DNA from: an uncultured Candidatus Saccharibacteria bacterium
GTDB taxonomy: Bacteria; Patescibacteriota; Minisyncoccia; Phycocordibacterales; PALSA-1337
Assembly (NCBI GenBank): GCA_964450345.1
Contig: CAYVEL010000001.1
Span: 16,671 to 80,670, forward strand
DNA: 64,000 nt
Reading direction: 5' to 3'
Both the position numbers and the translations under genes were made by a program. Below are positions 3,134 through 63,976 of the stretch, in pieces. A model generated the notes under the pieces. The model searched no databases, was not told where the DNA came from, and was given only the letters and a program-made list of their open reading frames with translations. Position 1 is the stretch's first letter. Each line of letters starts with the position of its first letter.

Positions 3134-3742
3134 CTACTTTACTGCTCTTTTTTCTTTGATTATGTGGAATATTGGAGGGAGTATCGAAAGCAATATAATT
3201 AGCGCGATTATCGGTAATAAATATTTATCAATATCCGGAATCATTCTACCGAGTGTAAATCCAGCCATTGTCACACCCACAATCCATATAAAACCACCGA
3301 CAATATTGTATCTTAAGAAGACACTATAATTCATTTTTCCTATACCAGCTAAAATCGGTGCGAAAGTTCTGACCACAGGCACGAATCTGGCTAATATTAT
3401 GGTCTTTTTACCATGTTTATCATAAAACTTCTGAGCTTGTTCTACGCGTTTTTTACTAAAAAATAATGATTCTTCTTTAGTGAAAAATTTCTGTCCCATC
3501 TTCCTACCGAAAGCATATCCAGTCGAATCTCCTAAAACAGCAGCGACAAAACCTACTATTAGCAAAACAGTTAAATCCAAATAACCCTTAGAAGCAAAAA
3601 GTCCGGCTGTGAACAAAAGAGAATCCCCGGGTAAGAAAAAACCAATAAGTAATCCAGACTCTGCAAAAATAGCAACTATAACCCCTACCAGACCGAGAGA
3701 TGAAATAATAAATTTTGGATCAAGTAAATCTGTAAGGTTCAT
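3134..3742 (-). CDS. dedA: DedA/VTT-family membrane protein
   Basis: motif FAESGLLIGFFLPGDSLLFTAG and polytopic hydrophobic profile characteristic of DedA/SNARE-associated family. Confidence 0.8.
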   Translation of the reverse strand: MNLTDLLDPKFIISSLGLVGVIVAIFAESGLLIGFFLPGDSLLFTAGLFASKGYLDLTVLLIVGFVAAVLGDSTGYAFGRKMGQKFFTKEESLFFSKKRVEQAQKFYDKHGKKTIILARFVPVVRTFAPILAGIGKMNYSVFLRYNIVGGFIWIVGVTMAGFTLGRMIPDIDKYLLPIIALIILLSILPPIFHIIKEKRAVK

Positions 3743-3782
3743 AAAGTTCTTTATCTATATTTTGTTTATTTTTTACTAAACT

Positions 3783-4151
3783 TTATTTAGCCTTAGTTCC
3801 TGCTGGAATATTAGAAGGTTCAAGTAAAGAAAAGGCACCCTCTGGAGTAGATACAGCCAGAATCATTCCGTTACTCTCTAGCCCTCTAATAGTACGAGGC
3901 TCTAGGTTAGTGACGAACATGCATGTTTTACCTACAAGCACTAGAGGATCAGGATAATATAGAGAAATTCCAGAAACTATCTGACGAGGAGCAGGAACTG
4001 TGCTTTTCTCCCCTGTTTCAGAAATCACCTCTTTAGTTTCATTAAAATCCACCACCAATCTAAGTAGCTTATCTGCATTAAGAACCTTTTCAGCACTCAA
4101 TATTTTACCGGCTGTAATTTCTACTTTAGAAAATTCGTCGTAATTAATCAT
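3783..4151 (-). CDS. tRNA-binding domain protein (CsaA/Trbp111/MetG C-terminal-like)
   Basis: 122 aa; FSKVEITAGKILSAEKV..ADKLLRLVVDFNE...RQIVSGISLYYPDPLVLVGKTCMFVTNLEPRTIRGLESNGMILA matches OB-fold tRNA-binding domain pattern. Confidence 0.7.
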   Translation of the reverse strand: MINYDEFSKVEITAGKILSAEKVLNADKLLRLVVDFNETKEVISETGEKSTVPAPRQIVSGISLYYPDPLVLVGKTCMFVTNLEPRTIRGLESNGMILAVSTPEGAFSLLEPSNIPAGTKAK

Positions 4152-8500: not shown

Positions 8501-9434
8501 AACATCAATTCCTATAATCATTAAAAGCACCGAAAAAGTTCCTTACTTTAATGTGTACACCTCATCATCTACAACCCTAGTAGCCAAAGCTACATCAACA
8601 CTAACAATTAGTAATCTAAGCCCAACTACAAAATACTGCTTCGTAGCATCAGGATATGTAAATGATAATTACTCAACAAAACTATCAGCACCATATTGTG
8701 CAACAACCCTATCTCCTATTGCGCCCGTATCTCTATCAATCGCAAGCAATAGTAGCGGTAAAATAAAACTGGCTTGGAGTAATAATAACGCAAAAAGTTT
8801 CAATTATATTTCTATAGAAAGAAGTATTGGAACAACAACTAACTTCTCAGAAATAGGAAACTCAACATCAACATACTATATAGATTCAACAGTTAGTCCA
8901 AAAACAAATTACTACTATAGAGTAAGAATTTCATATCCTTTTGGTTTTAGTGCATATTCAAATATCAAGCCAGTAACAACAGGAAGCTGGACTGTAACAA
9001 CTAATACTGCTACAACATCAACAGTTGTATCTAAATTAGTAACCAAAACAGCAACATCAACAGACAGTACTCAAACTAATACGATCAATGAATCGAAAAC
9101 ATCAGTAACCACAGAAAACAACATAACAGTAACGCCTACCCCAACTCCTACTTCTACTCCTGTTCCAACATCAACCCCTACTCCAACCCCTACACCTACA
9201 ACAAGCTCAACAATAATTAAAAAAGCCACAATAAGCGGCTATACATGTCCCATTGGTTATACATATAACACCGTATCCAAAACATGTAAAACAAATAGCA
9301 CTCGTACAAACACTGAGAGCACAAACCACGCAACACCCACACAAGCGCCAACAATAGTAAGCCCTATTCCTATATACTCTTGTCCTTCTGGATACACACT
9401 AAATACAGTTACAGCAACCTGTAGTAAGCATTAA
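5544..9434 (+). CDS. giant secreted/surface protein: signal peptide + lipase-like alpha/beta-hydrolase segment (GHSMG) + 3 FN3-like repeats + Thr/Pro linker + repeated Cys motifs
   Basis: N-terminal signal peptide (MTKNIVYCFIAVLAILTISKANIAMA); WGHS...KKVLVLGHSMGSLIAY nucleophile-elbow motif near nt 6560-6680; FN3-like W...Y.Y repeats at ~8190-8990; TPTPTPTSTPVPTSTPTPTPTPTT linker ~9130-9215; CPxGY(T/N)xN..C motifs x3. Confidence 0.75.
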   Translation: MTKNIVYCFIAVLAILTISKANIAMAYDTVMPPCYVYNSSLYTSGTQNITLFLKDGTTKSATIANQSTPTILSKIGFTANKTYSNGQTTTCATEAWWSYYPNYWLANTWINKEITLSNNTSVTFDGFPVWIKDIVNEIPTNSYSTDGYGSYWFDIDPFVYNGIGDLKNIADEDAVIKDIDTNKKINFKLGSSVSYDVSNYTVDQSVWPNKEYDLMSAPATNCALLSGNASSDSIKVVFMRNDDTDGVSDFLDQALKMRDGMVSRVENPAIYTFYADLKKWPKSSSISSSCGTANQYIYIPNETYVITVAGGITKTVNDPIFSWVDANITKPNGFDPTIRIPSWGHSVAHNTNLLRKYIELGLASGKKVLVLGHSMGSLIAYNVITKEYQGQPVVGVYIDPPYAEDIYNVVFSRMIPGVSTLFNNALAGGIATDPGSEIWTQGRGLVKMWTHDPFGHATWDSTIIANLQHLANFVNGPRLIALNNSTISPTIPSAQTAMVDAPIIKNYSADYVDGGTLAPGKNLKIYADNLSQYGNNIYIENKIDPSISYSFYGLLPTDNYLNITLPDMPDITTETEPGDYYVYISGRDSEFSTPITITIDSETTIPAPTISTISGTTVQGGTVTVTGSGFNIGKNNVRLVVANPSGTVNSFSHQVANALSAFWEMTKSFFTTSKAHSQTASVVPYYVTTADSIDGRSITFSIPNDIAPGKYTVQVSQPNGTWSDGSVISIEKSSSGNTGSGSGTVIDASTPTMIYRCDSTYGYSFRDENPNKANNYSLFKDKYLCYKANGQSENPLEVGLICTDNGYTLYRNNKTCLSTKTGIDIPVTGAKATYTCSLNWSKTAVPNFCVNYLGKWDYANETLSCPIGYNLQNNKCYINNIKGLTAKSTELGKVSISWDKNIILFAKSFVIERAISSTSPFSSIATINASSTSYIDINLPYDTSYAYRAKVIRTNDQYSSSSNIASVTVKGYSAPVVSKGSTAITATSIPIIIKSTEKVPYFNVYTSSSTTLVAKATSTLTISNLSPTTKYCFVASGYVNDNYSTKLSAPYCATTLSPIAPVSLSIASNSSGKIKLAWSNNNAKSFNYISIERSIGTTTNFSEIGNSTSTYYIDSTVSPKTNYYYRVRISYPFGFSAYSNIKPVTTGSWTVTTNTATTSTVVSKLVTKTATSTDSTQTNTINESKTSVTTENNITVTPTPTPTSTPVPTSTPTPTPTPTTSSTIIKKATISGYTCPIGYTYNTVSKTCKTNSTRTNTESTNHATPTQAPTIVSPIPIYSCPSGYTLNTVTATCSKH

Positions 9435-9766
9435 TTTTTAAGGTATTTTTCTCCGTACTTCCTCATAACATCCACCACCCCAGCGAGATGTTTACCTTTC
9501 TCTGTCATTTTATATTCTACTTTTGGTGGCATGCCTCCAAAATCGTTTCTGTTAATTAAACCTTCTTCTTCCATAACCTTCAGTTTATTAGAAAGAGTTC
9601 TAGAACTGATTCCATCTAACCCACTAAGCAAATCACCAAAACGCTTTGATCCACCAAGCAGATCTCTGACAATCAAAATAATCCAGGTATCACCAATAAG
9701 TGATGCTACCCTGGCAATTGGACATGGAGCACAGAGCTTTTTGTATGTCTTTTCGCTTCTTAACAT
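9431..9766 (-). CDS. HxlR-family winged-helix transcriptional regulator
   Basis: CPIARVASLIGDTWIILIVRDLLGGSKRFGDLLSGLDGISSRTLSNKLKVMEEEGLINR...PPKVEYKMTEKG matches HxlR/MarR-like DUF24 pattern; divergent from nitroreductase. Confidence 0.85.
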   Translation of the reverse strand: MLRSEKTYKKLCAPCPIARVASLIGDTWIILIVRDLLGGSKRFGDLLSGLDGISSRTLSNKLKVMEEEGLINRNDFGGMPPKVEYKMTEKGKHLAGVVDVMRKYGEKYLKN

Positions 9767-26176: not shown

Positions 26177-26704
26177 ATGTCAGGACATAATAAATTTTCA
26201 AAAATTAAACACATAAAAGCTAAGACCGACGCTCAAAAAAGTAAGGCTTTCGCAAAGATCTCTAAACTTATTTCTGCTGAAGCAAAAAAATCTAATGGAA
26301 ACGTTAATTCTCCAGGTCTAAAAACAGCTATTGAAAAAGGACGTGCTGTTAATATGCCCAACGATACTATTGAGAGAGCTATTAAAAAAGCTACTGATAC
26401 AAACGTAGAAATGGAATCAGTGCAGTACGAAACATACGGACCAGGTGGTGTGGCTATTATTATTGAAGGACTAACAGACAACAGAAATAGAACTGCGCCT
26501 GAAATAAAGAATATTCTTAAGAATCACGGATTAGAATTAAGTAACCCAGGAAGCGCTTCATGGGCATTTACTAAAATAGACAATGTTCTAACACCACAGA
26601 CCACTATCCCCCTAGGAGAGGAAGATTCTAATAAACTTCTAGAAATAATCGAAGCACTAGAAGAACATGATGATGTTCAAGAAATCTACACAAACGCTGA
26701 ATAA
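26177..26704 (+). CDS. yebC: YebC/PmpR-family probable transcriptional regulator (short form)
   Basis: MSGHNKFSKIKHIKAKTDAQKSKAFAKI N-terminus and C-terminal DDVQEIYTNAE. Confidence 0.8.
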   Translation: MSGHNKFSKIKHIKAKTDAQKSKAFAKISKLISAEAKKSNGNVNSPGLKTAIEKGRAVNMPNDTIERAIKKATDTNVEMESVQYETYGPGGVAIIIEGLTDNRNRTAPEIKNILKNHGLELSNPGSASWAFTKIDNVLTPQTTIPLGEEDSNKLLEIIEALEEHDDVQEIYTNAE

Positions 26705-31420: not shown

Positions 31421-31670
31421 GTTTTATATCTATAATATCGAATCCTCCTTCTTTAATAGCCTCCATAATCTTATCTTTCTTTAAAATAACAGTATTTTTT
31501 TCAGCGCTTCTAATATTTAGGAGTGCTGTTTTTTGTTTTATGTTTATTTTGTCTGAATCTATATTTATCTTACAGATTTTTCTGAGAATAGCAGATAAAC
31601 CTATTCTGTTTATGTCAGCATCGTCTGTTATCTTCCTATACTTCTTTAGAAACCCCTCTATTTTCTGCAT
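31410..31670 (-). CDS. small protein downstream of dnaN, DUF721/DciA-like (tentative)
   Basis: 86 aa; LLNIRSAEKNTVILKKDKIMEAI...IIDIKL resembles DUF721 core; position after dnaN; start overlaps dnaN stop. Confidence 0.3.
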   Translation of the reverse strand: MQKIEGFLKKYRKITDDADINRIGLSAILRKICKINIDSDKINIKQKTALLNIRSAEKNTVILKKDKIMEAIKEGGFDIIDIKLSR

Positions 31671-32770
31671 TAGCGATTCATAGGCATTACCAAATAGAGA
31701 AAGCTAGTATCTCCATTACTTCTTAGGATAACAGGCCTCTGAGGTCCATTAAACGATAAATAGACACTGTCCGCATAAATAGATTGAAAAACATCTGATA
31801 AATATTTTTGATTGAAGTTCGCTGAGTAGTCCTCTCCTTCTACACTGGCACTTATTACGGTTTTATTCTCACCAACATCACTATTTTTTGTTGTCAGAGT
31901 AATTGTTTTATTTTTTACTGAAATAGATATGTTTGCTTGATTAAACTTATCTGTAAATAAAGTAGATACTTTTAAAGCATTTATCAAATCATGCTTTAGA
32001 GCCACAACTTCAGAAGATGTAGACTTCGGAATAATCTGTTTATAATCCGGGAATGAGCCGTTAATCAATCTTGAGACTAGATAAACACCTTCTTTTTCAA
32101 AGGTTATTTGGTTTTTATCAAAAGAAATATTAATATCCTGGTTTCCATTATCAAAAACCTTTATTATTTCGGGAACATTTTTAAAAGGTATTAACAAAGA
32201 AAGCTCTCCTTCTATGTCCACTGCCTTAAATCTCTTTTCTGATAATCTAAATGAATCTGTAGCAACAAACACTATATCGTTCTGGTCTTTATATATATAA
32301 ACACTAGAAAGTTCTGGTTTTATAGATGAAACAGAAGCTGAAAACCATACTGACTTAAAGCCAAGTGTTAATTCTTTAGAATTTATCTTAAAAGATGATC
32401 CTTCTGTAATTCTAGGGATAGCTGGGTAATCGTCTTTAGGATATGTCTTAATAACTGCATTGTTCTTATTTCCTTCTATTTTTAAATTACCATTATCTTC
32501 TTCTAGAATAATTGTTTTGTCGGCTGCTATACCTGATATATATGAATTAAAGATAGCTGAAGGAACTACCACCTCACCTTCTTTAATAACTTTTACTGGA
32601 ATATCGAGTTCTATTCCTATGTCTAGGTTTGTAGATTTAATCTTCAAAGAGTTTCCTGTCGCACTCAAATGTAAACCAGAGAGTATCGGTAGATTTAGAT
32701 TCTTACCGGTCATACGTTCACTTAGGCTAATCGCCTCTTGAAGTTTTTCTCTAACGCATTCGATTTTCAT
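31670..32770 (-). CDS. dnaN: DNA polymerase III beta sliding clamp
   Basis: 366 aa, MKIECVREKLQEAISLSERMTGKNLNLPILSGLHL N-terminus, three-domain length, downstream of dnaA. Confidence 0.9.
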   Translation of the reverse strand: MKIECVREKLQEAISLSERMTGKNLNLPILSGLHLSATGNSLKIKSTNLDIGIELDIPVKVIKEGEVVVPSAIFNSYISGIAADKTIILEEDNGNLKIEGNKNNAVIKTYPKDDYPAIPRITEGSSFKINSKELTLGFKSVWFSASVSSIKPELSSVYIYKDQNDIVFVATDSFRLSEKRFKAVDIEGELSLLIPFKNVPEIIKVFDNGNQDINISFDKNQITFEKEGVYLVSRLINGSFPDYKQIIPKSTSSEVVALKHDLINALKVSTLFTDKFNQANISISVKNKTITLTTKNSDVGENKTVISASVEGEDYSANFNQKYLSDVFQSIYADSVYLSFNGPQRPVILRSNGDTSFLYLVMPMNR

Positions 32771-33007
32771 ATTCTTTATATATAAGAGAATTATTTTTAA
32801 TTAATAGAAGTGTGGATATGTGGAGAACTTTTTATATCTTTATTTATTAAGGGTTTTTTCTTTATAAGTTTTTAACATTTTGTTGATAACTACTTTATAA
32901 AATTTGATAACTTTTGCTTTTTTGTTTTTATACACTTTTTATTAGTAGTTTTTCAGTAGGTTTTCCCATACTTTTCCACAAGGATTCTAACAGGTTACCA
33001 ACAGGTT
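32771..33007. promoter_or_regulatory. dnaA-dnaN intergenic AT-rich region with DnaA boxes (candidate oriC/DUE)
   Basis: TGTGGATAT at ~32811 and TTTTCCACA at ~32975 (1-mismatch DnaA boxes), long A/T tracts. Confidence 0.55.
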
Positions 33008-34363
33008 TTAAACATTCATCATCGCTCTAAGCTGGCCGATCTCCTTACTTAACTCCGTATCTGTTTTAATATCGTTTTTAATTTTCTCACAAGAATGGAT
33101 GACTGTAGTATGGTCTCTTCCACCAAGCTTCTCTCCTATTGAAGGGAATGAAACATTAAAATCTTCTCTTAGAATATACATAACTACTTGGCGAGGTTTA
33201 ACCACTTCTTTCTTTCTGGTTTTATCGTAAATACTTTCTTCTTCTATATTATAAAACTGAGCAACGGTCTTAACAATCTCTTTAATAGCAACGTTTTTCC
33301 TAGGTCTAGCTGTGTCTCTTACGATGTTTTTAATATCAATAATACTCAAAGGGCGACCCTTAATCTGTGTTTGTATGACAATACTATTTAAAACACCTTC
33401 AAGCTCTCTTATATTCCCTGTAACTGTTTCAGAAAGGTAATCAATAACATCTTGGTTTAATATTAGATTGTAAGTTTTTGCCTTTGATTGAAGGATGGCT
33501 GATCTAGACTGAGCGTCTGGTGAAGGAATATCAATAATCATTCCAGCTCCGAATCTAGACTTTAGACGGTCTTCCAGATTCTGAATATAGTTAGGATGTT
33601 TATCTGAAGAAAAGATAATCTGCTTAAAATTGTCGTATAAATGATTAAACAAATGGAAAAGCTCTTCCTGGAATTTATCCTTTCCAGAGAAAAATTGAAT
33701 ATCATCTACAATTAAAAGATCATATTTTCTATACTTTTCTTTAAACTGGGCCATTCTACTGTTTTGAATAGCATCCCAACACTCAGTTCCGAATTTTTCA
33801 GAGGTTAAATAGAATACTTTCTTATTTGGAAAATGTTTTTTAACATGATTACCTATAGCTTGGGTTAAATGGGTCTTCCCTATTCCGGTATTACCGTAAA
33901 TAAATAGAGGGTTATAAACTTTTCCTGGATTTTTAATAACAGCTTGAGCTGCTGCGTGGGCAATTTCATTAAAAGGACCAATAACAAAGTTTTCAAATGT
34001 ATATCTAGGGTTTAGATTGTCTTCTTTATTAACATAAAGCTCGTTTAGAGGTAGTTCATTATACATATGAGCCTTTATCGCTGCAGCAGATGTTTCGCAC
34101 TTCTTGGGGTCTTTTTGCTCGTTGATGACATATTCTAGACCACGAACAGCATCATTGTGATTTCTTAGTATTCTTAAGATTGAATTATGAAACTTCTTCC
34201 AAAGCCACTCTTTTATGAATGTGCTTGGAACATTCAGATAAACTATACCGTCTTCTACTCTGTGGATGTTGGTGTCTTTAAACCACATCAAATAATCACT
34301 CTTAGAAAGGGTTAGTTCTATTTCTGTGCGAACATTTTCCCATAGTTTATTGTGGTCGTGCAT
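33008..34363 (-). CDS. dnaA: chromosomal replication initiator DnaA
   Basis: Walker A IYGNTGIGKTHL, box VII, C-terminal DnaA signature GGRDHTTVIHS; start set at MHDHNKLWENV (ORF-track 501-aa version runs into rpmH and DnaA-box cluster). Confidence 0.9.
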   Translation of the reverse strand: MHDHNKLWENVRTEIELTLSKSDYLMWFKDTNIHRVEDGIVYLNVPSTFIKEWLWKKFHNSILRILRNHNDAVRGLEYVINEQKDPKKCETSAAAIKAHMYNELPLNELYVNKEDNLNPRYTFENFVIGPFNEIAHAAAQAVIKNPGKVYNPLFIYGNTGIGKTHLTQAIGNHVKKHFPNKKVFYLTSEKFGTECWDAIQNSRMAQFKEKYRKYDLLIVDDIQFFSGKDKFQEELFHLFNHLYDNFKQIIFSSDKHPNYIQNLEDRLKSRFGAGMIIDIPSPDAQSRSAILQSKAKTYNLILNQDVIDYLSETVTGNIRELEGVLNSIVIQTQIKGRPLSIIDIKNIVRDTARPRKNVAIKEIVKTVAQFYNIEEESIYDKTRKKEVVKPRQVVMYILREDFNVSFPSIGEKLGGRDHTTVIHSCEKIKNDIKTDTELSKEIGQLRAMMNV

Positions 34364-34511
34364 TTGTTTTGTAAGTTGGAAATAATTATATACCTGTGGA
34401 TAGAATTTAGAACTTGTGGAATACTTAAAAATATGTTGAGAAGCTGTTAATAACCTGTGGACACAAGAAAATTTGATTTTTTGCAAATAATGTTCTAAAC
34501 TCTTATTCATC
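34364..34511. promoter_or_regulatory. dnaA upstream region with three DnaA-box-like TGTGGA elements
   Basis: TGTGGATAG, TGTGGAATA, TGTGGACAC within ~90 bp. Confidence 0.55.
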
Positions 34512-34658
34512 ATGTCGTTTACTTATAGTCCAAACAAAAAGAAGAGAGCACAGGCACACGGTTTTCTAATGAGAACAAGAACAAGCAAGGGTAGAAAGGT
34601 TCTCGCAAGAAGACGTGCTAAGGGAAGAAAGTCCCTTACTGTTTCTGCTGGTAGATAA
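34512..34658 (+). CDS. rpmH: 50S ribosomal protein L34 (not in ORF track, <60 aa)
   Basis: translation [48 protein letters not shown]; TAATG overlap with rnpA. Confidence 0.85.
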
Positions 34659-35011
34659 TGTTAAAATCCTCAAAAAGGCTTAGTAGAGCGTCTTTTGAGA
34701 AGGTTTTTACCGGAGGAAAGATAGTTAGAACTAAAAATTTTAATTTTCGAATTCTAAAAGACCCTACCCTACAGGGTCTTTTCGCGGTATCTGTCTCTAA
34801 GAAAGACTTTAAGACAGCTGTGTCCAGAAATAAAAACAAAAGAAGAGTTTACTCTATTATTAGAGAAATTAATAAAGAAAACAGAGAATGTTCTGTAATG
34901 AGTAAAAACAACACTACACAATCAATATCAGCAATAGTCTTTGTAAAAAAGACTGCGGAGTTAGAAAAATACTCCTTATTAAAGACTGAAATAGCTGATA
35001 TACTTAAATAA
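34658..35011 (+). CDS. rnpA: ribonuclease P protein component
   Basis: basic 117-aa protein LKSSKRLSRASFEKVFTGGKIV...AVSRNKNKRRV; rpmH-rnpA-yidC synteny. Confidence 0.8.
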   Translation: MLKSSKRLSRASFEKVFTGGKIVRTKNFNFRILKDPTLQGLFAVSVSKKDFKTAVSRNKNKRRVYSIIREINKENRECSVMSKNNTTQSISAIVFVKKTAELEKYSLLKTEIADILK

Positions 35012-53936: not shown

Positions 53937-54311
53937 TTAAATTACTTTAGTGCTTACGCTATCTTTTTTACACAATTTAGCTGCTGGGTTCGCTATTAGT
54001 TTAGCTTCCTCTATTTTTCCTCCGCAAGCTTCACAAATACCGTAGGTTCCCTTATCTATTTTTAGTAGTGCACTCTTTACTTCGTTAAATTGAGTTTCTA
54101 ATTGCTTCAAGATACCACTATTACCTTCAAAATGCTCTATCTTATCTGCTAATTCATTGTCGTCGGCAGAATCAATATCCATATTCTCAGGAACTGGTTC
54201 CCAGTCAGATGGATTGTCGGGGTTAATTCTACCCACAGTTTTGAGTTCCTCTTCGAGGTTCTTTAACTCATCCTGTAACAGTTTTTTGAACTGTTCATTG
54301 CTCTTTTTCAT
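53937..54311 (-). CDS. DksA/TraR C4-type zinc-finger protein
   Basis: coiled-coil N-terminus and C-terminal CEACGGKIEEAKLIANPAAKLC zinc finger. Confidence 0.65.
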   Translation of the reverse strand: MKKSNEQFKKLLQDELKNLEEELKTVGRINPDNPSDWEPVPENMDIDSADDNELADKIEHFEGNSGILKQLETQFNEVKSALLKIDKGTYGICEACGGKIEEAKLIANPAAKLCKKDSVSTKVI

Positions 54312-60454: not shown

Positions 60455-61249
60455 ATGAAAATCATTTGTTGGAATGTTAACGGAATTCGCGCTTTGGTAA
60501 AAAAGGGCGCATTTGATTGGTTAATTAACGAATCTCCAGACATTTTCTGCTTTCAGGAGACCAAAGCCCATCCAGAACAATTAGACGATTCCGTTAAGAA
60601 TTTAGAAGGTTACACATCATATTTTGACCATTCTAAGGTAAAAAAGGGATATAGTGGTGTAGCCGTATATACTAAAAGTAAACCAGAAAAGGTGGAATAT
60701 GGTATGGGTATTCCAGAATTTGATGAAGAAGGACGTATGCTTGCTTTATTTTTTGGTGGCGATGCCTTCTCTGGTCAGATGAGTAGTCCATTTTTGTTTG
60801 TTAACTGTTACTTCCCCAATGGTGGCGGTGGTCCAGAAAGATTAGATTATAAAATGCGTTTTTATGATGCATTCCTAAAATATGTTGAAAAATATACACA
60901 AAAAGGTATTCCTGTTATATTTTGTGGTGATGTTAATACTGCTCATAAAGAAATCGACTTAGCTAGACCGAAAGAGAATGAAAAAAATACCGGCTTCTTG
61001 CCTATGGAAAGAGCCTGGATTGATGAAGTTGTTAAGCTTGGTTATGTAGATACATTTAGAAAATTTTATCCGAATTTAGAAAATAAATTTTCTTGGTGGG
61101 ATATGAAAACTTTTGCACGAGAAAGAAATGTTGGTTGGAGAATTGATTACTTTTTTGCAAATAAGTTTGCTATAGATAAAATAAAAAATGCAAAAATTCA
61201 CGAAAAGATTTTAGGAAGTGATCATTGCCCTATTTCTATAGATATATAA
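60455..61249 (+). CDS. xthA: exodeoxyribonuclease III / AP endonuclease
   Basis: MKIICWNVNGIRA...FCFQETK...C-terminal SDHCP. Confidence 0.9.
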   Translation: MKIICWNVNGIRALVKKGAFDWLINESPDIFCFQETKAHPEQLDDSVKNLEGYTSYFDHSKVKKGYSGVAVYTKSKPEKVEYGMGIPEFDEEGRMLALFFGGDAFSGQMSSPFLFVNCYFPNGGGGPERLDYKMRFYDAFLKYVEKYTQKGIPVIFCGDVNTAHKEIDLARPKENEKNTGFLPMERAWIDEVVKLGYVDTFRKFYPNLENKFSWWDMKTFARERNVGWRIDYFFANKFAIDKIKNAKIHEKILGSDHCPISIDI

Positions 61250-61263
61250 AATATGGCTTATAA

Positions 61264-61283
61264 TAAAGACTTTTATGTCTTTT
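61264..61283 (+). terminator. short hairpin AAAGACTTTTATGTCTTT + T-rich tail after xthA
   Basis: seen in sequence. Confidence 0.4.
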
Positions 61284-61293
61284 AAATAGTAAG

Positions 61294-61325
61294 AACAAAA
61301 TGTCCTTTATAAAGGACATTTTGTT
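61294..61325. repeat. 32-bp perfect palindrome AACAAAATGTCCTTTATAAAGGACATTTTGTT
   Basis: seen in sequence; followed by perfect DnaA box TTATCCACA (61333-61341) and two direct TGTCCTTTA copies (61346-61364). Confidence 0.8.
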
Positions 61326-61747
61326 TACAGAGTTATCCACATAATTGTCCTTTACATGTCCTTTATATAAAAATATAATTATCTGCAGGTAAGACGGATT
61401 AGTGACATGTGGTCACTGAGGATGTCTCAGATCTTTAAATAATTTTTTTGAGGGTTAGTGGTTATCCCTCAATCTCAGTTCTAAAAGATTCGAGCTCTCA
61501 AGCGAGAATCGATGTAGAGATCTGTTCGGCAAATTGGACACAATGGCTTTCCCAATAATATTTTTTTGAAAGACCAGAATAGTGTCTCACGAATAGATTC
61601 TCGTAGTTTGAATCGTCCTGATGTTTAGGCTTAAATGCTTTAACTGCCTGATTGCCAGGAGGATTCCTTGTAAGTTTGCTAGCCCTTGCTAGCTGTTAGT
61701 TTAGTTCTTTTGATCTTTTGTTCCTTGTTCTTTTTGTTTCGACGCGT

Positions 61748-61782
61748 AAGGCCCTTCGAGAAGAAGGGCCTTTGTTATTTCT
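61748..61782 (+). terminator. strong plus-strand terminator GGCCCTTCGAGAAGAAGGGCC + TTTGTTATTT
   Basis: 8-bp GC-rich stem with T-run only in plus orientation; no upstream ORF. Confidence 0.65.
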
Positions 61783-61838
61783 AATATTTATTAAGCAATA
61801 AGCTTTTACTATGAGGGGGTGATTTAATAGTAAAAACC

Positions 61839-63323
61839 TTATTTTACCTTGAATTTTCCACGTATTTTAGCTATTTCCTCCTCCTCTTTTTCTTGTTTTT
61901 TAGCTTTTCCCTTATCTGATAGTTCTTTTAGGGTAGTTATGTCTAATGTATTGAGTTTTAAAGCTTTTCCTTCCAGGTACTCTGCTGTATTAAGATTCGG
62001 ATCTTCTAAAACTTCTTCCATTAACGCATTAAGTATTAAGCCTATTTTTGGTCCAGGTGTTTCCCGTGTAACCTCCATTATTCGGGAACCATCGATTTTC
62101 AGCATACCTACAGTAACAGGTGCTCTTAAAGCTTCTTCTATCATTGATTGATATTTTCTGAACCTATATGGTTCTTCTTTCGGTCTTCCTGTTCCTATTC
62201 TGTCACAGATTCTTACATACATAAGGTCCCAAATGTTTTCACGCCCAACATTTGCAACCATTCTTCTTACCGCGGATAGGGTTATTTGTTCTGGATCAGA
62301 GAAAAACATGTGCCATCTTACTAGCTTTGTTACCTTTTCGATTGTTTTCACGGGAAACTTAAGTCTATCAAGGACTTTCTTTGTTACACGTGAACCAACA
62401 ACTTCGTGACCGAAAAACGTATTTTCTCCTGTTTCATGTGAAAATCTCTTTGTTTCTGGCTTTGATATATCGTGAAATAGGGCAGTAAGTCTTATTTCTA
62501 AGCTATATTCCTTATCAGCAGCGTGTTGGAGGCTCTTAAGTAGATGTTCCCATACGCTATAAATATGAGCTCCTTTTTGCGTAACACCTATACCGGTCTC
62601 TAGTTCTGGTATGAAATACTTAAGTAATCCTGTTTCATGTGAAAGAATAAGGCCGTCCATAGGTCTTGGTGACATTATTATCTTTATGAACTCGTCCCTT
62701 ATTCTCTCTGCTGAAATCTTTGAAATAAGGCTAGAATTAGCAATTATGGCCTTTTTTGTATCGATGTTTAACGTGAAACCAAGTTCAGACGAGAATCTGA
62801 TAGCTCTTAGCATTCTTAAGGCGTCTTCTCTGAACCTATCCTCTGCTTTTCCTACGGTTCTTATAGTTTTGTCCATTAGATCTTTTCTTCCGTTATATAG
62901 ATCAGTTATTTCCGCGCTATTGTCCTTTATAGAGAGCGCTAGCGCATTCATGGTAAAATCCCTTCGTCCAAGATCATCTTCCAGCTTATCGCTAAATTTG
63001 ACGTCTTTAGGGTGTCTATAATCTTCGTACTGACCTTCGATTCTGAATGGAGTTACTTCTACAATATTTTTTTCATTGTTTTCATCTACTACTCCGACTG
63101 TTCCAAAAGTATTTTCATAGAATGTTCTAGGGAATAGGGCTACTATTTGTTCAGGTGTTGCGCTAGTTGTAATATCCCAGTCTTTTGGTTCTCTTTTAAT
63201 TAAGACATCTCTAACACAACCACCTACTAAGTAAGCTTTATAGCCATTTTTCTCTAAAGTATTTAAAACCTTTATAGACAGTTCTGGTATTGTTATTTTA
63301 CGTCCAAAAAGATCGATTTCCAT
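61839..63323 (-). CDS. cca: CCA-adding enzyme / tRNA nucleotidyltransferase with HD domain
   Basis: LVGGCVRDVLI...DWDITT head domain, HD domain; start trimmed to MEIDLFGRK because upstream extension is translation of tRNA-Arg gene. Confidence 0.85.
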   Translation of the reverse strand: MEIDLFGRKITIPELSIKVLNTLEKNGYKAYLVGGCVRDVLIKREPKDWDITTSATPEQIVALFPRTFYENTFGTVGVVDENNEKNIVEVTPFRIEGQYEDYRHPKDVKFSDKLEDDLGRRDFTMNALALSIKDNSAEITDLYNGRKDLMDKTIRTVGKAEDRFREDALRMLRAIRFSSELGFTLNIDTKKAIIANSSLISKISAERIRDEFIKIIMSPRPMDGLILSHETGLLKYFIPELETGIGVTQKGAHIYSVWEHLLKSLQHAADKEYSLEIRLTALFHDISKPETKRFSHETGENTFFGHEVVGSRVTKKVLDRLKFPVKTIEKVTKLVRWHMFFSDPEQITLSAVRRMVANVGRENIWDLMYVRICDRIGTGRPKEEPYRFRKYQSMIEEALRAPVTVGMLKIDGSRIMEVTRETPGPKIGLILNALMEEVLEDPNLNTAEYLEGKALKLNTLDITTLKELSDKGKAKKQEKEEEEIAKIRGKFKVK

Positions 63324-63354
63324 TGATTTTATTGTTATTTTAAGGGTTAAATTG

Positions 63355-63427
63355 TGCGCCCGGCAGGACTTGAACCTACAACCCCTTGGTCCGAAGCCAA
63401 GTGCTCTATCCATTGAGCCACGGGCGC
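63355..63427 (-). tRNA. tRNA-Arg (anticodon TCG)
   Basis: GCGCCCG acceptor, D-arm GCTC-AATGGATA-GAGC, anticodon stem CTTGG/CCAAG with loop CTTCGGA, T-loop GGTTCAAGTCC, CGGGCGC-A. Confidence 0.85.
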
Positions 63428-63923: not shown

Positions 63924-63976
63924 TGTGGATAACTATGGGGATATTGTTTATAAAGGACATATTTTTATAAAGGAAA
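63924..63976. promoter_or_regulatory. perfect DnaA box TGTGGATAA plus ATAAAGGACA motifs (same motif family as 61294-61364)
   Basis: seen in sequence. Confidence 0.4.

Follow-up and report, generated by a model that had tools for sequence, protein, structure and literature searches.

What is encoded between the convergent xthA and cca genes? We addressed this question in a 64,000-nucleotide stretch of DNA (the window), following a sequence-only reading which proposed that the region holds a transcript-sized structured ncRNA that ends at a plus-strand terminator and is not recognisable as tmRNA, RNase P RNA or SRP RNA. We find that the observation is real and that its interpretation is supported: the gap holds a previously uncatalogued structured RNA gene, and promoter-anchored loci in the same position number more than one hundred in class Paceibacteria. 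What the RNA does is inferred from sequence alone, as set out below.

A non-coding gap with its own predicted promoter and terminator

xthA (Exo_endo_phos) lies at 60455–61249 on the plus strand and cca (PolyA_pol + HD) at 61839–63323 on the minus strand, so that the two genes converge. The 589 nt between them (61250–61838) hold no ORF longer than 36 aa and form the longest stretch in the window free of ORFs of 60 aa or more. The next longest stretches are 587 nt (tRNAs, cut by the window edge), 442 nt and 346 nt. A terminator, AAGGCCCTTC-GAGAA-GAAGGGCCTT plus TGTTATTTCT, lies at 61748–61772, one of 4 terminator-like sites in 1.7 kb against 0.9 expected. No U-run follows it on the minus strand, so it faces the plus strand. 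We also found a promoter-like site that the sequence-only reading had missed, matching the consensus at 11 of 12 positions. It predicts a start near 61387, in agreement with the left boundary given by that reading.

The smaller claims of that reading held only in part. Of the hairpins it listed, GTGAC...GTCAC (the top of P1) and GAGGG...CCCTC (P2) are real and covary in relatives, whereas CTGAG...CTCAG is present in the sequence but not conserved, its bases forming the 3' strand of P1. The small terminator assigned to xthA exists at 61265–61282 but is weak, with 2 G-C pairs, and was not called by the terminator scan. The more striking element there is a 32-nt perfect palindrome. In addition, in the closest relatives the RNA ends at hairpin P5. 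Roughly the last 110 nt up to the strong terminator are an extension specific to this genome.

The upstream control region comprises the following features.
61294–61325 (no strand assigned): 32-nt perfect palindrome AACAAAATGTCCTTTA|TAAAGGACATTTTGTT, made of two inverted TGTCCTTTA sites; probably an operator pair and possibly also the xthA terminator.
61333–61341 (plus): perfect DnaA box TTATCCACA, 4 bp upstream of the TGTCCTTTACA repeat that carries the -35 hexamer.
61346–61367 (plus): two direct TGTCCTTTA repeats 11 bp apart (61346–61354 and 61357–65), covering the -35 hexamer and the spacer; inferred site of an unidentified DNA-binding factor.
61351–61379 (plus): sigma-70-type promoter, -35 TTTACA (61351–56), 17-bp spacer, -10 TATAAT (61374–79), with a predicted start near A61387 in a conserved CAG.

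The RNA itself comprises the following features.
61387–61782 (plus): predicted RNA, long form of about 395 nt, with bounds taken from the promoter and terminator; a short form ending after P5, near 61675, would be about 290 nt and would correspond to the full RNA of the closest relatives.
61393–61426 (plus): P1 hairpin, with a sequence-conserved asymmetric internal loop (GGAUU / GAGGAU, tandem G.A type) and a covarying upper stem.
61429–61442 (plus): boxA-like element 1, AGAUCUUUAAAUAA, followed by a U-run (61443–49).
61450–61470 (plus): P2 hairpin GAGGG-UUAGUGGUUAU-CCCUC, with the conserved loop UUA(A/G)UGGUUA.
61476–61487 (plus): degenerate second boxA-like element (CAGUUCUAAAAG); the orthologues have G(U/C)UCUUU here in alignments A1, A2 and A4.
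61487–61510 (plus): P3 hairpin GAUUCGAGC...GCGAGAAUC, with an internal tandem G.A mismatch, predicted only, from the single-sequence fold and reading of the sequence.
61517–61602 (plus): P4, a long irregular hairpin capped by the conserved loop CCCAA(U/A)(A/C)AUUUU (61551–61568).
61610–61666 (plus): P5, homologue of the relatives' terminator hairpin; its inner hairpin AGGC/GCCU displays the invariant loop UGCUUUAAC (61636–61644), which is boxA-like element 3, and in the window its U-tract has decayed to CCUUGUAAGUUUG.
61678–61693 (plus): P6, small hairpin GCUAGC-CCUU-GCUAGC, in the genome-specific extension, with no counterpart in related loci L205, L206, L207 or L005.
61704–61735 (plus): array of four tandem GWUCYUU motifs (GUUCUUUU GAUCUUUU GUUCCUU GUUCUUUUU), predicted to be single-stranded and left unpaired by the fold.
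61748–61782 (plus): strong intrinsic terminator, a 10-bp stem with 6 G-C pairs, a GAGAA loop and the tail UGUUAUUUCU.

Neither a coding remnant nor a catalogued RNA

We first asked whether the region could be a decayed pseudogene or a small-protein gene. The only 36-aa ORF (61448–61558, TTG start) is broken by a 1-nt insertion in L205, the 84%-related locus, and the insertion is compensated within stem P2. Six-frame Pfam scans returned no hit in any frame, and conservation follows stems and loops rather than codons. We regard a coding explanation as remote.

We next asked whether the RNA belongs to a catalogued family. Rfam 15 at gathering thresholds on the whole window and 8 relatives, together with permissive E-values on 61200–61900 and 8 more relatives, yielded only tRNAs, and ARAGORN found no tmRNA. 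Within 61200–61900 the best hit scored 24 bits against a 50-bit threshold, and it falls on the palindrome. A highly diverged housekeeping RNA (RNase P RNA above all, or else tmRNA, 6S or SRP RNA) was nonetheless worth considering, as 300–400 nt fits RNase P RNA or tmRNA, rnpA is present at 34658–35011, no RNase P RNA is seen in the 64 kb, and L205 happens to contain GAAAGUCCC. However, none of these models gave a hit even at E <= 10 in the window or at E <= 1 in eight relatives. The GAAAGUCC-like string is absent in L005, L207 and the window, and it forms the 3' strand of the P4 apical stem. Orthologous loci in other clades encode RNAs of only about 150–230 nt, and there is no closing 5'–3' stem of the kind seen in 6S RNA. 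This reading is very unlikely. Literature searches on ncRNA in Patescibacteria or Parcubacteria, and on oriC and NusB, returned no relevant prior description.

A conserved promoter module between xthA and cca

Searching with the RNA body by nhmmer recovered only the 5' part of L005, and nothing in 141 promoter-anchored sequences. The body is too diverged for sequence search, so we turned to synteny and structure. Without any pattern bias, nhmmer found the promoter module, including the DnaA box, next to cca in 5 other genomes (L005, L071, L010, L015 and L007). An 18-base promoter pattern then retrieved 120 metagenome loci, nearly all lying between xthA and cca. Among 42 species-level loci with cca-xthA synteny, 20 (strict pattern) to 32 (relaxed pattern) carry the module. 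In all we compared about 150 related loci.

The DnaA box is one of only two perfect boxes in the 64 kb, and is invariant in alignment A1 of the orthologues. It lies 2–6 bp from the repeat in more than 100 loci, and dnaA itself is encoded in the window (33008–34513). Binding of DnaA and the direction of its effect are inferred from the site. Exact copies of TGTCCTTTA occur only here, at 62921 and at 63951. The repeats are conserved in more than 100 loci, and in some clades the second copy is inverted (TGTCCTTTACA-N7-TAAAGGACA). The -35 and -10 columns are invariant in five orthologues and recognisable in more than 100 loci. Upstream, TGTC(C/T)TTTATAAAGGACA is conserved in sequence in L005, L205, L206, L007, L071 and L210. 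Four Logan contigs from the xthA side end at or just before the palindrome, and the exact cca protein (494 or 524 aa) was not on record in the contig index searched.

These sites raise the possibility that the locus matters mainly as DNA, or as a transcription event. It would be an origin- and centromere-proximal control region whose DnaA-gated transcription acts like mioC or gidA next to E. coli oriC, or titrates DnaA, with the RNA product secondary. The only two perfect DnaA boxes flank cca (61333 and 63924), five parS-like sites lie inside cca against 0.35 expected, and DnaA-box clusters occur upstream of cca in several relatives. Gene orientation from 35.8 to 59.3 kb also suggests that replication forks arrive from the right end of the window. 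Against this, the RNA promoter has a single box and not the cluster expected of an origin, so we rejected oriC at this position. Clusters lie elsewhere, at 32811–32980 and from 63924 onward, the dnaA-dnaN spacer 29 kb away has its own four boxes, and GC skew does not place an origin here. Together with the evidence below for selection on the RNA itself, this makes a DNA-level role very unlikely as the main explanation.

Helices maintained by compensatory change

The plus strand folds better than its shuffles (z = -3.8; 0 of 100 shuffles), but the minus strand does so even more strongly (z = -5.1), so folding energy alone does not identify the strand. Covariation was more informative. RNAalifold on 6 orthologues gave 30 pairs, 16 of them with compensatory changes, and many G.U pairs, which fit only the plus strand. 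On the alignment fitted to the model, 100% of 88 cells pair and 10 of 16 pairs change on both sides. The covariation score is 0.625, against 0.27 for shuffles (0 of 500 reach it) and 0.12–0.18 for slid controls. These counts rest on six sequences, two of them near-identical, and the latter on an alignment fitted to the structure. An independent GC-rich subfamily gave 26 pairs, 18 of them compensatory.

Individual helices bear this out. In helix 2 of P1, four of six pairs change on both sides (GUGAC/GUCAC versus GCGAAA/UUUCGC, GGUGA/UCACC). In P2 all six pairs show changes on both sides, 100% of cells are paired, and the loop is conserved (invariant but for the A/G position given above). P4 was folded separately in each orthologue and gave the same long hairpin with the same apical loop on stems of different sequence (GGCUUUC/GAAAG.CC, GGCCUUC/GAAGG.CC, UCUUC/GAAGA), its loop columns being conserved in alignments A1 and A2. 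The inner stem of P5 also covaries (AGGC/GCCU, GGAA/UUCC, CGGAC/GUCCG, GGAAA/UUUCC). In contrast, the pairing of boxA-like element 1 with a downstream AAAGAUU, seen in the single-sequence fold, is not conserved in relatives.

Models built without the window (R1 and R2) recover 61386–61487 (85 bits, E about 1e-21) and 61602–61670. The latter is the hit of R1, built from 4 relatives only, at 46.4 bits (E = 3e-11), the next hit scoring 23 bits. However, R2 found nothing convincing in about 200 other loci, which confines the window-type fold to a Taylorbacteria-like group. That the wider set is one family thus rests on position, promoter, motif and terminator, not on a shared fold. Relatives end at a P5-type hairpin plus a U-tract, and a long terminator hairpin recurs across the wider family.

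The constant position next to cca prompted us to ask whether the RNA is a substrate, mimic or regulator of the CCA-adding enzyme. The RNA stays next to cca in more than 100 loci, even where the RNA gene is inverted, and by our own reading the P2 loop (AGUGGUUA) fits the A14..G18G19..A21 pattern of a tRNA D-loop. Yet ARAGORN and the Rfam tRNA and tmRNA models find nothing here, there is no T-arm and no acceptor stem, and the 3' end is a terminator hairpin. A GGU(U)A loop after the motif is not enriched across the family (29 of 90 against 23 expected). cca converges on the RNA gene and is not co-transcribed with it, and xthA is an equally constant neighbour. We consider this reading very unlikely.

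A repeated boxA-like motif

The third feature shared across the wider family is a single-stranded G(U/A)UCUUU motif near the 5' end, often repeated, that resembles the rRNA-leader boxA, the NusB/S10 binding site. The pattern G[CTA]TC[CT]TT occurs 157 times on the sense strand of 99 non-redundant RNAs, whereas its reverse complement occurs 15 times and shuffles give about 20. Of the 99 RNAs, 90 have at least one copy, 49 at least two and 16 at least three. The motif is promoter-proximal, with 100 of the 157 copies within 75 nt of the start, and in the consensus fold it is unpaired and follows a hairpin. Its distance from the promoter varies from 57 to 184 nt, tracking the size of P1, which argues for an RNA-level rather than a DNA-level role. 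The window's RNA holds 5 GWTCYTT matches on the plus strand, against about 0.18 expected by our calculation from the window-wide density, plus the related UGCUUUAAC in the P5 loop.

The window's AGATCTTTAAATA matches 8 of the 10 specified positions of the gamma-proteobacterial boxA consensus GYTCTTTAANA (PMC5725501) and L205 matches 9 of 10, while the family-wide core is G(U/A/C)UC(U/C)UU, compared with a boxA core of (U/G)GCUC(U/C)UU. The motif also resembles E. coli UGCUCUUUAACA and Aquifex GGCUCCUUGGCA, and the terminator loop of the GC-rich subfamily carries UGCUCCUU, which equals boxA positions 1–8. Scans of viral contigs for a paceibacterial rRNA leader gave only 16S leaders from other phyla, serving as analogies and not as proof. 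In these, on unrelated contigs, the same GATCTTT/GTTCTTT forms lie after a hairpin, which is followed by GTTCTTTGAGAA or GATCTTTGAACA. No 16S 5' end lies within 2.5 kb in any locus, and no locus examined carries an rRNA signature. NusB was not found among 20 small or mid-size ORFs of the window, nor by tblastn of the DNA searched with E. coli NusB, which is uninformative for a 64-kb sample.

Several properties of the motif caution against equating it with boxA. It is short and pyrimidine-rich, and could equally be a base-pairing seed or the site of another protein. The window's first copy has A at position 2 (GAUCUUU), and the P5-loop copy is 2 nt shorter than boxA. Moreover, a boxA inside the terminator loop cannot serve antitermination of the same transcript, so that part of any boxA model needs a second function.

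The main alternative is that the RNA is a trans-acting base-pairing sRNA, whose conserved CU-rich elements (GUUCUUU, UGCUUUAAC, UGCUCCUUUU and CCUCCAC in different subfamilies) would be seeds that pair with purine-rich stretches of mRNAs, including Shine-Dalgarno regions, to control translation or stability. The similarity to boxA would then be coincidental. A conserved 5' motif, a variable body and an intrinsic terminator are typical of such sRNAs, and terminator-hairpin loops of other subfamilies carry anti-SD-like CUCCUUU or CCUCC. However, the window's own subfamily has no CCUCC-type loop, its invariant loops being UGCUUUAAC, UUAGUGGUUA and CCCAAACAUUUU, and the complement of GUUCUUU (AAAGAAC) is not a Shine-Dalgarno sequence. 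Tandem repeats 8–11 nt apart suit protein binding better than seed pairing, and the RNA is long and elaborately folded for a seed-type sRNA. We consider this alternative possible but unlikely.

A model for the RNA

Combining these observations, we propose that the region is an independent gene for a structured, non-coding, probably stable RNA, one member of a fast-evolving family that sits between xthA and cca throughout class Paceibacteria. The conserved promoter geometry, covarying helices, conserved loops, intrinsic terminator, absence of coding potential and absence of any match to a catalogued RNA family are shown by the data. Expression, the start and end points, protein binding and function are predicted or inferred, as is the mechanism that follows.

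In this model, transcription starts near 61387, and because TGTCCTTTA repeats cover the -35 and spacer and a perfect DnaA box flanks the promoter, output is probably set by DnaA and an unidentified TGTCCTTTA-binding protein. The nascent RNA would form P1 and then expose a single-stranded G(U/A)UCUUU(A/G)A element, the layout of an rRNA-leader boxB-boxA signal. We propose that this element loads NusB-S10, with NusA and NusG, onto RNA polymerase, which would protect this long untranslated transcript from Rho and help it fold, as happens for rRNA and CRISPR arrays. The body would then fold into P2, P4 and P5, with loops conserved in sequence, and transcription would stop at the terminator hairpin. 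The released RNA would still display further copies of the CU-rich motif, in the window one in the P5 loop and four in tandem before the terminator. We infer that these are its working surface, most likely binding the same protein that reads the 5' copy.

We are highly confident that this is a real structured RNA gene, and moderately confident in the combined statement. That the motif acts as a boxA/Nus site is tentative, somewhat less likely than not, and that the RNA acts in trans by holding protein is unlikely on present evidence. A more speculative and likewise improbable extension is that the RNA is a DnaA-gated decoy for NusB and S10. When DnaA and the TGTCCTTTA-binding factor permit, the cell would make a stable RNA studded with boxA-like sites that soaks up NusB-S10 and so tunes rRNA antitermination and ribosome assembly. 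In bacteria with very few regulators, this would couple the state of chromosome replication to ribosome production.

Paceibacteria (Parcubacteria) are among the most abundant and least understood bacteria, with genomes below 1 Mb, few transcription factors and almost no experimentally defined regulatory RNA. The locus offers a class-wide RNA gene that annotation pipelines miss, a sharply defined promoter module that can be used to find the gene and search for its regulator, and a boxA-like motif on an RNA that is neither rRNA nor a CRISPR transcript, which would widen the reach of Nus-factor signals. If the motif copies do bind NusB-S10, this would be the first RNA proposed to titrate the antitermination machinery. 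Even if they do not, the family gives a concrete target for Northern blots or RNA-seq in the few cultured Paceibacteria co-cultures, and a landmark for the origin-proximal region alongside the parS-like cluster in cca and the flanking DnaA boxes.

Comparison with known systems

The closest parallel is the rRNA-operon leader antitermination signal (boxB hairpin, boxA, boxC; read by NusB-S10, NusA, NusG and SuhB). In both, a strong promoter is followed by a hairpin and then a single-stranded G(C/U)UCUUU(A/G)A element within the first 100 nt or so of an untranslated, highly structured transcript, and in some subfamilies a G-rich stretch (GGGUAG) follows in the position of boxC. Here, however, no rRNA follows, the transcript is predicted to end after 150–600 nt at an intrinsic terminator, and the motif recurs, including in the terminator-hairpin loop and, in this genome, as a four-copy array. 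Any Nus-factor binding is by analogy. boxA elements upstream of CRISPR arrays and of suhB (PMC7665894, PMC5725501) provide a precedent for boxA protecting or regulating transcripts other than rRNA, in particular long untranslated ones exposed to Rho. Those are leaders of arrays or mRNAs with a single boxA each, whereas here the motif belongs to a free-standing RNA gene and is repeated.

Protein-sequestering RNAs (CsrB/RsmZ with GGA repeats; 6S RNA) likewise are structured stable RNAs with several copies of one short motif exposed in loops and single-stranded stretches, with copy number expanding in particular lineages. The motif here is CU-rich rather than GGA, there is no CsrA-type context and no 6S-like rod with a central bubble, and a partner protein is only postulated. 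DnaA-controlled promoters near replication origins (E. coli mioC and gidA; P. aeruginosa gidAB-parAB, PMC13438810) share a consensus DnaA box abutting the core promoter, in a neighbourhood with parS-like sites and a further DnaA-box module, but here there is only one box and the product is a conserved structured RNA, not a protein. Finally, like the orphan large structured RNAs known only from comparative genomics (OLE, ROOL, GOLLD, raiA motif), this RNA was discovered from an ORF-free, conserved, covarying intergenic region, is restricted to one clade and has no assigned biochemical function. It matches none of them in sequence or structure (Rfam 15), its body evolves much faster, and its locus and promoter are unusually fixed.

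A promoter-to-terminator unit between xthA and cca

The genes xthA (60455-61249, plus strand; Exo_endo_phos) and cca (61839-63323, minus strand; PolyA_pol, RNA-binding and HD domains) converge on a 589-nt spacer. No ORF in this spacer exceeds 36 aa, and it is the longest stretch in the 64-kb window free of ORFs of 60 aa or more. A plus-strand terminator lies at 61748-61772 with a U-rich tail, where the sequence-only reading had placed it, and because no U-run follows it on the minus strand, it faces the plus strand. The observation of an ORF-free region ending in a plus-strand terminator is therefore confirmed. That reading had not noted a promoter-like site matching 11 of 12 consensus positions, TTTACA-17-TATAAT at 61351-61379, which predicts a start near 61387 and a transcript of about 395 nt. 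The plus strand folds better than shuffled controls (z = -3.8), but so does the minus strand (z = -5.1), so folding energy alone does not settle the strand.

The longest cca ORF (61839-63413, 524 aa, as in the NCBI-derived protein P0001) overlaps the tRNA-Arg gene at 63354-63427. The start at 63323, giving 494 aa, matches the 84%-identical cca protein P0002 and is probably correct.

We next asked whether the region encodes a known RNA or a coding remnant. Rfam 15 at curated thresholds finds only six tRNAs in the window. At E <= 10, the 61200-61900 stretch gives only chance-level hits to unrelated sRNA and miRNA models, ARAGORN finds no tmRNA, and Rfam searches of sixteen related loci give nothing either. 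These searches speak against the rival reading of a diverged housekeeping RNA. Six-frame translations hit no Pfam family, and the only notable ORF (36 aa, TTG start) is destroyed in the closest relative by a 1-nt insertion that is compensated within an RNA stem, which speaks against the rival reading of a pseudogene.

Organism and synteny

The cca protein retrieves 80 species-level loci, all Patescibacteria of the Paceibacteria/Parcubacteria type, including Taylorbacteria, Nomurabacteria, Zambryskibacteria, Kaiserbacteria and others. The best of these loci is 67% identical. An nhmmer search with the spacer found, without any prior assumption, a conserved block just beyond cca in five of the related loci (L005, L071, L010, L015 and L007). 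The block reads TGTCCTTTATAAAGGACA ... GTTATCCACA N3-5 TGTCCTTTACA TGTCCTTTATA ... TATAAT ... CAG, and corresponds to 61294-61390 of the window.

We then scanned metagenome contigs with only TTATCCACA-N(2-6)-GTCCTTTAC, which returned at least 120 loci. Mapping by tblastn showed that nearly all lie between xthA and cca, with the promoter reading either toward the 3' end of cca (85 cases) or, inverted, toward the 3' end of xthA (19 cases). The promoter module therefore travels with the RNA gene, not with its neighbours. The distance from the DnaA box to the end of the converging gene has a median of 395 nt and a range of 165-1413 nt. Of 42 species-level loci with cca-xthA synteny, 20 (strict pattern) to 32 (relaxed pattern) carry the module, while two have only about 100 nt between the genes and so lack the RNA. 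The position beside cca is also where a rival reading arises, that of a tRNA-like partner of the CCA-adding enzyme.

The DnaA-box and TGTCCTTTA regulon is not limited to the RNA. In two Elulimicrobiales-type genomes, the same promoter module (DnaA box, TGTCCTTTAC, TGTCTTTTATAAAATGTCGTTTATAAT) precedes a short hairpin and then a protein-coding gene with an MKK... signal-peptide-like start (related loci L062, about 1814, minus strand, and L083, about 1529, minus strand, and 13137, plus strand). Among the few regulator-like genes in the window are a DksA/TraR-type zinc-finger protein (53937-54311), an HxlR-family regulator (9431-9766) and a YebC-family protein (26177-26704), none of which could be linked to the TGTCCTTTA sites.

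Conserved structure

The RNA body diverges quickly. A protein search for closer cca relatives gave loci L205 (84% identical cca), L207 (70%), L206 (68%), and L005 and L208 (67%). In L208, an IS200/IS605-type Y1 transposase gene (3675-4046) occupies the place of xthA next to the RNA gene. The spacers of these relatives align with the window from the promoter to hairpin P5. RNAalifold on the six sequences predicts 30 pairs, 16 of them with changes on both sides, together with many G.U pairs, which would be A.C on the other strand and so support the plus strand.

Covariance models built without the window recover it. A model of the 5' domain, built from L205 and L207 only, finds 61386-61487 at 85 bits (E about 1e-21), and a model of the 3' hairpin, built from four relatives, finds 61602-61670 at 46 bits (E about 3e-11). 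The next hits are ordinary terminators at 23 bits or less. On the model-fitted alignment, all 88 cells pair and 10 of 16 pairs change on both sides. The covariation score is 0.625, against 0.27 in shuffles (0 of 500 reach it) and 0.12-0.18 when partners are slid, although this rests on six sequences, two of them near-identical, and on an alignment fitted to the structure. The central domain P4 folds into the same long hairpin in each orthologue when folded alone, always carrying the same apical loop, CCCAA(A/U)(C/A)AUUUU, on stems of different sequence.

A separate GC-rich subfamily of 18 sequences has its own conserved fold, with 26 pairs, 18 of them compensatory. The locus therefore encodes a structured RNA in more than one clade. 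The 5'-domain model (R2) finds nothing convincing in about 200 other loci, and the wider set is thus a family by position, promoter, motif and terminator, not by a shared fold. Together, these results support the sequence-only interpretation of the region as a structured ncRNA.

Anatomy of the locus

Features of the locus, read along the plus strand:
61294-61325, operator-like perfect 32-nt palindrome
61333-61341, DnaA box
61346-61367, two TGTCCTTTA repeats over the -35 hexamer and spacer
61374-61379, -10 hexamer
near 61387, predicted start
61393-61426, hairpin P1, with a sequence-conserved GA-rich internal loop
61429-61442, boxA-like element AGAUCUUUAAAUAA, followed by a U-run
61450-61470, hairpin P2, loop UUAGUGGUUA
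61476-61487, degenerate second motif
61487-61510, hairpin P3, predicted only
61517-61602, hairpin P4
61610-61666, hairpin P5, whose inner hairpin shows the invariant loop UGCUUUAAC
61678-61693, small hairpin
61704-61735, four tandem GWUCYUU motifs
61748-61782, strong terminator

In L205, L206, L207 and L005, P5 is followed by a U-tract and is the terminator. In the window this tract has decayed, and the transcript should therefore continue through the small hairpin and the four tandem motifs to the strong terminator. P1 and P3 both contain tandem G.A/A.G-type internal loops. The P1 loop (GGAUU / GAGGAU) is invariant in the orthologues, which suggests a protein-binding or tertiary-contact motif. 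At the palindrome, four Logan contigs from different runs that encode the identical xthA (L001-L004) all end at window position 61286 or 61323, probably because the assembly graph breaks there.

A repeated motif resembling boxA

Across 99 non-redundant family members, G[CTA]TC[CT]TT occurs 157 times on the sense strand, whereas the reverse complement occurs 15 times and shuffles give about 20. Ninety RNAs have at least one copy, 49 at least two and 16 at least three, and 100 of the 157 copies lie within 75 nt of the start. The distance of the motif from the promoter ranges from 57 to 184 nt, depending on the size of the preceding hairpin. A DNA operator would keep a fixed distance, so this points to an RNA-level role. 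In the window, the RNA carries 5 matches where, by our calculation, about 0.18 are expected from the window-wide density. A seed-pairing sRNA is a rival reading of such a motif.

The motif resembles boxA, the NusB-S10 binding site of rRNA leaders. The gamma-proteobacterial boxA consensus is GYTCTTTAANA (PMC5725501). The Aquifex 12-mer is GGCUCCUUGGCA, and from the differences reported at positions 1, 6 and 9 we derive the E. coli sequence as UGCUCUUUAACA; eight nucleotides are read by the protein pair (PMC3177189). The terminator loop of the GC-rich subfamily carries UGCUCCUU, identical to positions 1-8 of those sequences. No rRNA leader or nusB gene from a Paceibacterium was recovered in our searches, and the identification of the motif as boxA therefore remains an inference. 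On unrelated contigs, which we infer from the promoter type to be Bacteroidota, 16S leaders show the same order of promoter, hairpin, then GTTCTTTGAGAA or GATCTTTGAACA. boxA is also known to protect untranslated CRISPR transcripts from Rho (PMC7665894).

Chromosomal context

The only two perfect DnaA boxes in the window flank cca. A second conserved module, TGTCCTTTA..ATATCCCCA..GTTATCCACAG, lies upstream of tRNA-Arg and cca at 63924-63976 (minus strand), running off the window end. The same arrangement, with 3-6 DnaA-type boxes, lies 0.4-1.6 kb upstream of cca in the related loci L015, L021, L031, L035, L043 and L045, and is a candidate oriC or DnaA-titration site. In addition, five parS-like sites (TGTTTCACGTGAAACA with 2-3 mismatches) cluster inside the cca coding region at 62058-62780, against about 0.35 expected in the whole window. 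Relatives carry near-perfect parS sites (GTTTCACGTGAAAC, GTTCCACGTGGAAC) in the spacer between the RNA gene and cca, or inside cca. The cca locus may be the ParB loading region.

The genes dnaN, dnaA and rnpA lie 29 kb away, at 31670-35011, with four one-mismatch DnaA boxes in the dnaA-dnaN spacer (32811-32980). All genes from 35815 to 59297 are on the minus strand, pointing leftward, as if forks arrive from the right end of the window. GC skew does not resolve where oriC is, but the RNA gene is in any case origin-proximal. This context bears on the rival reading of the locus as an origin-linked transcription unit.

Proposed mechanism and relation to known RNAs

Our analysis establishes a conserved promoter-to-terminator unit, selection on RNA pairing and on loop sequences, a strand-specific, promoter-proximal and repeated CU-rich motif, and a DnaA box and TGTCCTTTA repeats fixed to the core promoter. 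We are highly confident that the RNA gene exists. What this unit does is inferred from sequence. In our model, DnaA and a second factor would gate transcription, the 5' motif would load Nus factors and shield the untranslated RNA from Rho, and the extra copies on the finished RNA would bind protein. We hold the boxA/Nus reading only tentatively, at slightly less than even likelihood. A copy inside the terminator loop cannot help transcription of the same RNA, which is the main reason to suspect a role in trans, possibly as a decoy, although we consider the decoy idea unlikely.

No Rfam 15 family matches this RNA, and full-text literature searches found no description of it or of its promoter module. 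It is a new RNA family of a familiar general kind, a clade-specific structured ncRNA. What is unusual is the combination of an rRNA-leader-like signal carried on a short free-standing RNA, the multiplicity of the motif, and a DnaA-box promoter.
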